A DNA stretch of 64,000 bases from Dehalococcoidia bacterium (GTDB lineage: Bacteria; Chloroflexota; Dehalococcoidia; Dehalococcoidales; BS750m-G39), in assembly GCA_050123275.1 (NCBI GenBank), contig JASFHK010000001.1, positions 142,684 through 206,683 of the forward strand. The letters are read 5' to 3'. Every line of letters begins with the position of its first letter. Position 1 is the stretch's first letter. The notes beneath the pieces were generated by a model, which was not told where the DNA came from, searched no databases, and saw nothing but the letters and a program-made list of their open reading frames with translations. Both the position numbers and the translations under genes were made by a program. This document shows positions 43,678-45,300 of the stretch, in pieces.

Positions 43678-43705
43678 TTGACACCGTTTATCCTGATAGT
43701 ATAAT
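43678..43705 (+). promoter_or_regulatory. candidate promoter for the reverse transcriptase gene
   Basis: TTGACA (43678-43683), 16-nt spacer, then TATAAT (43700-43705). The ATG lies 20 nt after the -10. Confidence 0.5.
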
Positions 43706-43725
43706 TTCCAAGTAGGTGTCAAAAC

Positions 43726-45300
43726 ATGCCTGGATTAGATCAAGCACTTGTCGAAGAGATAGATTTCACTCTGGCACTAGGCAGAGTGAAAACAGACGTT
43801 TTGAGCGATTTCCTTTTAGCTCCTCACTATTCAGCAGTATATACATATGCAGCAGATGATTTGATTGACCGCACGAAGACTTTGTTGCGTAATGGAGAAT
43901 ATCACCCAGAATTACCAATTTTCGTCGATATCCCAAAACGAAGTGGTCTTTCTAGGCCTGGTGCAATCCTGCTTCCTATAGACAGGCTTGTATATCAACT
44001 GCTTGTAGATATGGTCAGCGTGCAGGCAGAAGCACAGTTAGACAGGTCTTGTGTATTTAGCCATGTTTTGCTCTCTGAGGACCCCGATTTTAAAATGTTT
44101 GAACCAGCGGATGAGTGTTGGCAAAGCATGCAAAGAGCCTTGAAAGCGCGGTGTCAAGATACCGGATTCTCGCATGTTGTTAAGGCAGATGTCGCATCTT
44201 TTTTTGAGAGGATCTACCGGCACAATTTAATGAATTTGCTTCATTCATCCGGCTGTGATTCAAGAGTCGTTAATCTATTAGAAAAAGTCACGTCGGAATT
44301 TATGGAGAATGATTCGCATGGGATATTACAGGGGATGTTTCCCTCAGATTTTTTAGGGAATTTCTATTTAGCCAGTCTTGACAATGATCTTAAAGTTAAG
44401 GACGTTCCGTCCATTCGTTATGTAGATGACTTATATCTTTTTTATCCTTCCTTAATTGAAGCAAAGAAGGGGCTATTTGCTTTGTGTAGGATTCTTCGTG
44501 ACGAAGGATTGAACCTGAATGAAAGTAAAACAGATATACTGCAAACTCATGATCTTTTAGCAGAAGAAACTGAAATAGACAGGTTATTCAGTAGAGCGAA
44601 AAAGGAAGTTCGCGAGATTGGCGCGGAGGTAGAGCTGGAAACACCATATGGTTTTCAAAGCGTGTGGCTTACTGCGGAAGAGGGTTTGCCAGAAGAAAAA
44701 GTAGAATTAGTTGCCATGGAGGAATTATATTACAAGGTTTCAGATACAGAGGTAGATTCAGACAAGATTGAAAAATTTTGTCTGCCCTACTTAGCAAAAA
44801 CACTTAATGACGTAGCTGTAGGGAGGTCGCTAGAAGGAATATTATTGCGGCCATATCTATCTAAAATGTATTGTTCTTATCTAATGCCTTTTGCTCGAGA
44901 AGACATTGATGTATCCAAGCGACTAGAATCAATTATTACAGATGACGAATTACCATACGATTGGTCGCTAATATGGCCAATGGCAGTTTTAATTGATGTG
45001 GATTCTATCGAGAACGGAACTGTGACAAAGGCCTTAAGAATAATGGAAGATAGTCGTAGGTTGGATGGTTTAAGAGCTTTAGCAGCGCATTTAGTTGCAA
45101 AACATGGCAATGCTGGTCAACGACGACTACTCAGGCATTGGTATGACCAAGAGCCATCTCCATATGTGAGAGCGGCCATTTTATTTTCTACTAGGCACTT
45201 GCCAACGAATGAACGTAATAGTTGTCTAACGGCTTGGGGGAGTCACTCAATAACTAATTCTCTTATTACGAGCGCTATTCGTAACTCAGCTGGTCCTTAG
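43726..45300 (+). CDS. reverse transcriptase, stand-alone UG/Abi-like type with helical-repeat C-terminal region
   Basis: 524 aa. IPKRSGLSRPGAILLPIDRLVYQLL, ADVASFFERI, GILQGMFPSDFLGNFYL, RYVDDLYLF (YVDD codons 44419-44430), GLNLNESKTDIL. About 40% GC on hand-counted lines. Confidence 0.85.
   Translation: MPGLDQALVEEIDFTLALGRVKTDVLSDFLLAPHYSAVYTYAADDLIDRTKTLLRNGEYHPELPIFVDIPKRSGLSRPGAILLPIDRLVYQLLVDMVSVQAEAQLDRSCVFSHVLLSEDPDFKMFEPADECWQSMQRALKARCQDTGFSHVVKADVASFFERIYRHNLMNLLHSSGCDSRVVNLLEKVTSEFMENDSHGILQGMFPSDFLGNFYLASLDNDLKVKDVPSIRYVDDLYLFYPSLIEAKKGLFALCRILRDEGLNLNESKTDILQTHDLLAEETEIDRLFSRAKKEVREIGAEVELETPYGFQSVWLTAEEGLPEEKVELVAMEELYYKVSDTEVDSDKIEKFCLPYLAKTLNDVAVGRSLEGILLRPYLSKMYCSYLMPFAREDIDVSKRLESIITDDELPYDWSLIWPMAVLIDVDSIENGTVTKALRIMEDSRRLDGLRALAAHLVAKHGNAGQRRLLRHWYDQEPSPYVRAAILFSTRHLPTNERNSCLTAWGSHSITNSLITSAIRNSAGP

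Follow-up and report, generated by a model that had tools for sequence, protein, structure and literature searches.

A 64-kb stretch of a Dehalococcoidia genome (positions 142,684 to 206,683 of contig JASFHK010000001.1, hereafter the window) carries a solitary reverse transcriptase (RT) gene that belongs to UG20, a Class 1 group of the UG/Abi RTs. A first-pass annotation, made from the letters of the window and its open reading frames (ORFs), had described here a 524-aa ORF with the ordered series of RT motifs; the ORF exists, and its translation holds every motif string quoted there, in the order given. The series comprises motifs 1-2 (PKRSGLSRPG and DRLVYQ), A (D155, codon 44188-44190), B (QG at 202-203), C (YVDD) and D (K268), and the YVDD codons (TAT GTA GAT GAC) lie exactly where they had been placed. 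An identical protein is present in NCBI as 'MAG: RNA-directed DNA polymerase [Dehalococcoidia bacterium]' (MAG, metagenome-assembled genome). The coordinates of the gene and its parts are listed in Table 1.

Table 1. The UG20 reverse transcriptase gene of the window, its expression signals and its predicted domains
Feature	Coordinates	Strand	Details and basis
Sigma-70-type promoter	43678..43705	+	TTGACA 43678-43683, 16-nt spacer, TATAAT 43700-43705; 12/12 consensus match
Shine-Dalgarno-like AGGTG, 7 nt before ATG	43714..43718	+	direct reading of sequence
UG20 reverse transcriptase gene, Class 1 UG/Abi	43726..45300	+	524 aa plus stop; ORF call, PADLOC profile
RT fingers and palm, about residues 44-281	43855..44568	+	RVT_1; UG20 profile against structures; invariant columns
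Catalytic YVDD, motif C, Y232 V233 D234 D235	44419..44430	+	codons read directly
Acidic flexible linker between the lobes, residues 299-319	44620..44682	+	only segment with pLDDT <50; contains P-Y308-G-F-x-x-x-W314
C-terminal alpha-repeat (alphaRep, HEAT-like) helical domain, residues 320-524	44683..45297	+	model: 12 helices

The gene stands out from its surroundings by composition. Its GC content is 0.41 over the whole ORF and 0.39-0.43 internally, about 17 points below the flanks, against 0.62-0.64 in 500-nt windows of the adjacent aminotransferase gene and 0.58 in the entire window; the contrast with the aminotransferase gene noted earlier is real, while the figure of 67% given for the latter was slightly high. 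The promoter, previously called near-consensus, is the sole perfect TTGACA-N16-TATAAT in the window, and none of 100 shuffles gave one. Its sequence suggests constitutive expression of the RT gene, with a predicted transcription start near 43712 and a leader of only about 14 nt. The upstream neighbour, across a 273-bp intergenic region, is divergent and the downstream neighbour, across a 33-nt spacer, is convergent, in agreement with the earlier statement that the gene has no co-directional partner.

Assignment to UG20 comes from profile searches of the kind proposed with the first-pass annotation. The PADLOC model RT_UG20 (PDLC03758) matches the protein end to end (residues 1-518 against positions 1-511 of 511) with 581 bits and E = 6.8e-175, more than twice the score of any next PADLOC model. 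The runners-up, aligned over their full length or nearly so, are the neighbouring Class 1 groups UG21 (238 bits, E = 6.4e-71), UG19 (172 bits), UG23 (167 bits) and DRT8/UG7 (157 bits), each below half the UG20 score, and almost all of the best 25 PADLOC matches listed for the protein are UG/DRT models. NCBIfam models for Drt2-5, AbiA, group II intron RTs and retron RTs all score far under their cutoffs. The sole Pfam domain in the protein is RVT_1 (E = 3e-14, residues 125-273). The placement in the UG/Abi class is thereby upheld; the view that the subgroup could not be assigned, and might be unclassified, is refuted, as the group is already catalogued.

UG20 has been described as a Class 1 UG/Abi group in which the RT is fused to alpha-helical HEAT-like repeats, with remote HEAT-like homology reported for the C-termini (Mestre 2022, PMC9226505). 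The window protein shares with the group its length of about 520 aa, the combination of RT and alpha-repeat region without a fused domain, and the single-gene organization. On sequence grounds it is an ordinary Dehalococcoidia member of an already catalogued group, and nothing sets it apart. The family is small: a library of 1.84 billion proteins, clustered at 50% identity, contains about 60 representatives above 300 bits, and the full-length ones almost all have about 515-550 aa. A scan of a genome collection with the single protein as query returned no locus, and the same scan with a 40-sequence alignment returned 30 loci from GTDB species genomes, 27 of which are clear UG20 relatives; these 27 and the window make up the 28 loci compared below. 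Their hosts are Chloroflexota, Nitrospirota, KSB1, Acidobacteriota, Bacillota, Thermodesulfobacteriota, Alphaproteobacteria, Bacteroidota and one Methanosarcinales archaeon. In an all-against-all comparison of their ORFs the RT is the only gene common to the loci, and the single-gene organization proposed before is borne out, with no neighbouring gene recurring across the 28 loci. Two neighbour clusters that recur in three to four loci were considered as partners and rejected, since they consist of generic ABC ATPases and short-chain dehydrogenases. The HEPN-like, NUDIX or SLATT partners that usually accompany UG19, UG22 and UG23, and the nucleases that accompany UG7 (PMC9226505), are likewise absent from the window.

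The RT gene is under strong purifying selection. The ratio of non-synonymous to synonymous substitution rates (dN/dS) is 0.11, 0.09 and 0.11 against relatives at 80%, 72% and 67% protein identity, respectively. Of the positions conserved to at least 97% among 107 full-length homologues, all 65 are retained, including D155, QG202-203, D234-D235 and K268, and V233, D234 and D235 are invariant across 40 homologues. That the gene might be the inactive remnant of a defence gene, an outcome already foreseen in the first-pass annotation, could be argued from its orphan position among housekeeping genes and from broken relatives, i.e. two fragments (loci L026 and L027) and a Rhizobium plasmid copy in two pieces. 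With dN/dS near 0.1, every catalytic position intact, a full-length ORF, and promoter and Shine-Dalgarno sequence retained, we consider a relic very improbable.

We then turn to the predicted structure. An AlphaFold2 monomer model built on 40 homologues has a mean predicted local distance difference test score (pLDDT) of 88.1 and a predicted template modelling score (pTM) of 0.87. In this model a fingers/palm lobe is followed by a single disordered stretch (residues 299-319) and then by 12 helices that reach the C-terminus, located between residues 323 and 521, with pLDDT of 70-80 over residues 321-360 and above 89 from about residue 361. When the full-length model is compared with the PDB by Foldseek, the best matches are DRT6 (9wy8, template modelling (TM) scores 0.63/0.66) and DRT4 (9vdo, 0.62/0.65), followed by UG15 (9l9s, 0.57), AbiK (7r06/7z0z, 0.54-0.58), Abi-P2 (0.50) and AbiA (0.47). 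DRT9 and DRT2, which depend on a non-coding RNA (ncRNA), align to the RT core only (TM 0.36-0.39), and group II intron RTs likewise. The alpha-repeat lobe is part of the full-length matches to DRT6, DRT4, AbiK and Abi-P2. The helix-rich, HEAT-like C-terminus that had been read from the sequence therefore stands as a fold; as a sequence profile it does not, with no Pfam match to HEAT or other repeats in the C-terminal 215 aa even at E <= 10.

These data also bear on the possibility of a classical retroelement RT, from a group II intron, a retron or a diversity-generating retroelement (DGR). By sequence, the fingers/palm region does align best with group II intron RT structures (UG20 profile positions 48-274, E = 1e-18; positions 151-293 align with AbiK at E = 4e-13), and there are sub-threshold NCBIfam matches to group_II_RT_mat (TIGR04416, 84 bits, cutoff 300) and to a model for retron RTs (28 bits, cutoff 235). 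These scores are far under the cutoffs, however, and the alpha-repeat lobe is foreign to all three types; retron RTs have about 300-350 aa, compared with 524 aa including the alphaRep lobe here. No maturase (X/GIIM), endonuclease/HNH or integrase domain is found in the protein by Pfam, no Rfam intron or retron family is matched, and neither template/variable (TR/VR) nor msr/msd repeats are present. In 41900-46600 the repeats are short and at chance level, with direct repeats of at most 28 nt and none of TR/VR character, and no Avd-like gene lies beside the RT. The first-pass annotation had likewise seen no such domains and no retron- or DGR-type repeats, and a classical retroelement is effectively refuted.

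What moves with the RT can be seen from a related Dehalococcoidia locus (L032, JGI Ga0315547_1000455). It contains a syntenic block with gatC-gatA, DUF7662, an AsnC regulator, an aminotransferase and TrpRS, and an RT with 80% identity to the window protein is located at a different junction of this shared housekeeping block. DNA homology between the two RT copies is confined to 43656-45282, i.e. promoter and ORF, indicating that the mobile unit is a promoter-plus-ORF cassette of about 1.65 kb. Within it, L032 retains the promoter core CTGATAGTATAAT and the -35 box, and its counterpart of the Shine-Dalgarno sequence is AGGAG. The low GC content relative to the flanks, the different insertion site and the restriction of homology to promoter and ORF bear out the horizontal acquisition proposed earlier. 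The GC content of the RT is below that of its flanks in 20 of the 27 related loci. No integrase, tRNA or flanking repeats are found at the window RT locus. A search for an empty site found none, as the neighbouring 94-aa protein occurs only on RT-carrying contigs and the exact aminotransferase sequence is unrecorded; the insertion boundaries are therefore taken from the L032 comparison alone.

Further differences surround this cassette. Between the window (40888-50333) and L032 three junctions differ, which marks the block as a small hotspot for the turnover of genes. The L032 RT adjoins NfeD and PALP genes, not the aminotransferase; a SnoaL gene stands in L032 in place of the segment with a radical SAM gene, the 94-aa ORF and the RT; a MatE gene of L032 is without window equivalent, and an AT-rich 288-aa ORF of the window is without L032 counterpart. 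A 22-nt inverted repeat (41917-41938 / 45474-45495, 91% complementary) brackets the RT segment of the window. We judge it coincidental, because its arms lie inside the convergent trpS and aminotransferase genes and both encode AEKLL. At the locus of the Methanosarcinales archaeon (L020), a direct repeat (3285-3330 / 5044-5089) precisely brackets the UG20 gene at 3387-4988. Its copies are spaced by 1759 nt and are near-identical over 31 nt, extendable to 46 nt at 83% identity. It may be the insertion signature, att-like or a target duplication, of a single-gene cassette; the window RT has no counterpart of this repeat around it.

Whether the enzyme copies an RNA is a separate question. It could be RNA-templated, like the Class 2 enzymes DRT2, DRT9 and DRT10 or like DRT3a, with an undetected ncRNA that lies within the ORF or antisense to it, or is encoded elsewhere in the genome. 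Several UG/Abi systems need a neighbouring ncRNA (PMC9226505, PMC13213688), Rfam may have no models for such RNAs, and the intergenic region upstream of the gene measures 273 bp. The first-pass annotation had accordingly pointed to 43453-43725 and 45301-45333 as places for a cis-encoded ncRNA. This suggestion is left unsupported by the short leader and the 33-nt downstream spacer, by the lack of a conserved flank and by the lack of a significant fold. In the upstream region, where the divergent neighbour has its promoter too, neither strand folds more stably than shuffled sequence (z = -1.1 for each), and the 300-nt flanks of the 28 loci, compared all against all, have no element in common. 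Rfam gives no match at gathering thresholds in the whole window and none at E <= 1 in 43000-45700, and no tRNA was found at the RT locus. The unit shared with L032 extends from only 70 nt before the ATG to the stop codon. UG20 has been placed in Class 1, not in Class 2 (PMC9226505), and its predicted fold matches untemplated enzymes over the full length and ncRNA-dependent ones in the RT core only. Taken together, the null RNA searches, the Class 1 placement and the modelled fold argue against a templating ncRNA, and an RNA-templated enzyme appears improbable.

The closest structural relatives are enzymes that make DNA without a template. DRT6 (UG12; 9wy8) and DRT4 (UG15; 9vdo, 9l9s) resemble the UG20 protein in being single-gene systems of similar size with a bilobal RT-alphaRep architecture (TM 0.57-0.66), and they synthesize single-stranded DNA (ssDNA) in a protein-primed, template-independent manner as hexamers, causing abortive infection (PMC12783706). 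Their identity to the window RT is only 12-14%, they belong to different UG groups, and the PADLOC Drt4 model scores 55 bits. AbiK and Abi-P2 (7r06-7r08) share the bilobal arrangement of RT and HEAT-like helical domain (TM 0.50-0.58) and carry out protein-primed untemplated synthesis as trimers or hexamers (PMC9508834). AbiA from Lactococcus (8oz7) is also a Class 1 RT with a helical domain. It differs in its extra C-terminal HEPN domain, which UG20 lacks, in forming a dimer, and in the scores (TM 0.47; NCBIfam AbiA 33 bits against 250).

The priming residue is not in the same place in these enzymes. AbiK Y44 and Abi-P2 Y61 are located in the fingers and DRT4 Y125 in the palm (PMC12783706, PMC11077055), while the AbiA primers Y298/Y303 are found in the disordered loop (290-310) that joins its RT domain to its helical domain (PMC11077055). 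In UG20 the best candidate lies in the inter-lobe linker, unlike the palm Tyr125 of DRT4. The linker is acidic, hypervariable and rich in indels, with one near-invariant island (P-Y308-G-F-x-x-x-W314). At position 308 (codon 44647-44649) 104 of the 107 UG20 homologues have Tyr, two have Ser and one has Phe, so that the hydroxyl is kept in 106 of 107. We also compared 41 sister proteins (P0162-P0266), lower-scoring full-length relatives that are presumably UG21-, UG19- or UG23-like. Tyr occupies this column in 33 of the 41, in 27 of them as 'PY'; of all linker residues, 5.5% are Tyr. Being near-invariant, located in the sole disordered linker and placed like AbiA Tyr298, Tyr308 is the best candidate for an AbiA-style protein-priming residue, a prediction drawn from conservation, the model and analogy. 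Tyr35 (in APHY), the nearest counterpart of the fingers-loop primers of AbiK and Abi-P2, was considered and downgraded, as it is replaced by Phe in 9% of UG20 proteins and is unconserved in the sisters.

Considering family, fold and conservation together, we regard it as probable that the gene is a functional UG20 cassette for protein-primed untemplated ssDNA synthesis, most likely serving phage defence by abortive infection. By analogy with the solved Class 1 enzymes (AbiK, Abi-P2, AbiA, DRT4/UG15 and DRT6) the UG20 enzyme would not copy RNA. It would probably act as an oligomer, would prime on a residue of its own, for which Tyr308 in the inter-lobe linker is the best candidate, and would extend ssDNA without a template, the alpha-repeat lobe standing in for the template strand. 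Protein-primed untemplated synthesis has been described for AbiK and Abi-P2 (PMC9508834), AbiA (PMC11077055) and DRT4 and DRT6 (PMC12783706); the Class 1 relatives are usually trimers or hexamers, and their helical lobe holds the nascent strand (PMC9508834, PMC11077055, PMC12783706). The least certain step concerns the role. Again by analogy, abortive infection is most likely; following the model for DRT4 and DRT6, the DNA product would normally be trimmed by host exonucleases and become toxic once a phage DNA-binding protein protects it.

Several points weigh against this reading, some concerning the chemistry and others the role. Priming sites vary in position among Class 1 enzymes (PMC12783706, PMC11077055), and for this reason Tyr308 is offered as a prediction only. 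Aligning a variable linker may favour stacked tyrosines, and two other tyrosines are alternative priming candidates: Y385, invariant in the 107 UG20 homologues and Tyr in 39 of the 41 sisters, and Y473, invariant in the UG20 homologues. Both are buried within confident helices of the model. The Class 1 enzymes Drt3b and DRT7 make patterned, not random, DNA (PMC13213688). With regard to the role, UG20 is one of 16 groups for which the prediction of defence was 'inconclusive', and it is absent from the systems assayed in the same study (Mestre 2022, PMC9226505); a full-text search of the literature library that was available found no later paper mentioning UG20 as an RT. The window RT and most of the 27 related copies are solitary insertions with housekeeping neighbours (tRNA synthetases, gatCA, Mo-cofactor and purine genes), and a defence or toxin-antitoxin context is confined to a minority of the loci. 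In the first-pass annotation's term 'defence RT', the RT family is thus confirmed and the word defence is extrapolated from the family.

The same protein-primed Class 1 chemistry might accordingly serve something other than phage defence, e.g. a DNA-damage or stress response, or the horizontal spread of a selfish gene that brings its host no benefit. In addition to the inconclusive association and the housekeeping neighbours, a DRT7-type PrimPol-RT is described as acting in the oxidative DNA-damage response as well as in defence (PMC12439943). UG20 is not carried by phages: neither tblastn against 50,697 phage genomes nor an alignment scan of IMG/VR gave a full-length match, and the tblastn matches were partial, confined to the RT core and from RTs of retron or group II type. 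Against a non-defence role, all Class 1 UG/Abi groups assayed to date are antiviral (PMC9226505, PMC12439943, PMC13213688, PMC12783706), and the patchy spread across phyla, the low GC content and the strong purifying selection are typical of defence genes.

Some UG20 copies, moreover, do adjoin defence genes. Few of the 142 flanking ORFs from the 27 loci match defence models, and those traced belong to Shango (L009) and to a Type I restriction-modification system (L011). In L009 (L009:9-5898), a Thermodesulfobacteriota MAG, UG20 lies 100 nt downstream of Shango (TerB-domain SngA and SngC). On a Rhizobium acidisoli megaplasmid (L039, NZ_CP035001.1) a copy that appears split in two is located beside DarT, a macro-domain protein, and SIR2 with an ATPase, and on a Ca. 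Manganitrophus plasmid (L040, CP114559.1) UG20 sits in a toxin-antitoxin cluster between VapC, MazE-PIN and RES-Xre modules. Altogether, UG20 is found on three plasmid records. We see a non-defence role as a distinct possibility, though on balance a doubtful one. It is rather unlikely, in our view, that UG20 and its 'PY' sisters are a distinct Class 1 branch which primes on the linker Tyr and whose product would be not random but a homopolymer or a protein-templated pattern like those of Drt3b and DRT7, or whose role is not defence, as most copies stand alone amid housekeeping genes, the present one in an uncultured lineage of Dehalococcoidia. Protein-primed, untemplated synthesis in the service of abortive infection remains the reading that we prefer for the window gene.

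The other genes around the RT deserve a brief description. The divergent upstream neighbour is a 94-aa ORF (43171-43452, minus strand) whose C-terminus is rich in Cys (NNCDGCNNCSDRF) and which matches no family; it has a near-consensus promoter of its own (43576-43548, minus strand) and is followed by a radical SAM/SPASM enzyme gene (41973-43073, minus strand). Judged by sequence, the two look like a precursor and maturase pair for a ribosomally synthesized and post-translationally modified peptide; the pair shows no linkage to UG20 in the other loci. The radical SAM gene was also considered as a pVip (viperin) defence partner and rejected. It scores 72 bits with PADLOC and 61.6 with the NCBIfam viperin model, whose cutoff is 180, SPASM peptide maturases score better, and the gene is unlinked to UG20 elsewhere, so that the match is one of generic radical-SAM similarity. 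Overlapping small genes at 47014-47722 (minus strand) encode DUF6504 and DUF7662 proteins. The former (85 aa) reaches 23.8 bits in Pfam, just under the cutoff of 24.2; the latter (167 aa) has an N-terminal zinc-ribbon-like CxxC…CxxC, and its gene, which follows a short unannotated ORF, recurs in L032.

Besides the RT gene, the window has AT-rich islets at 12501-13050, 15201-17250, 37601-38500 and 47551-48600, with a GC content of 0.43-0.45 against 0.58. Three of them bear ORFs and lie between housekeeping genes. These ORFs, of 498 aa (15448-16944, minus strand), 179 aa (37690-38229, plus strand) and 288 aa (47673-48539, minus strand), have no Pfam or PADLOC match, and PHROGs and NCBIfam were negative where run. 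It seems that foreign genes tend to accumulate in this genome as single insertions, and there may be unrecognized defence genes among them.

The finding fills a gap in the known map of these enzymes and does not overturn current understanding. The window locus, about 1.6 kb with a single promoter and ORF and with neither an RNA nor a partner gene, is about the smallest and cleanest test case in the family. If the prediction for Tyr308 is true, AbiA-style linker priming would extend to a clade formed by UG20 and its sister groups, which would help to explain the shifting of priming sites across the family. Enzymes that write DNA without a template are also of interest as tools. Its compactness and the specific prediction of a priming residue make the locus convenient for addressing the product and purpose of UG20. 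For the organism, the locus shows that RTs of the defence type reach the Dehalococcoidia, which are subsurface and organohalide-respiring bacteria with a phage biology of which little has been learnt.

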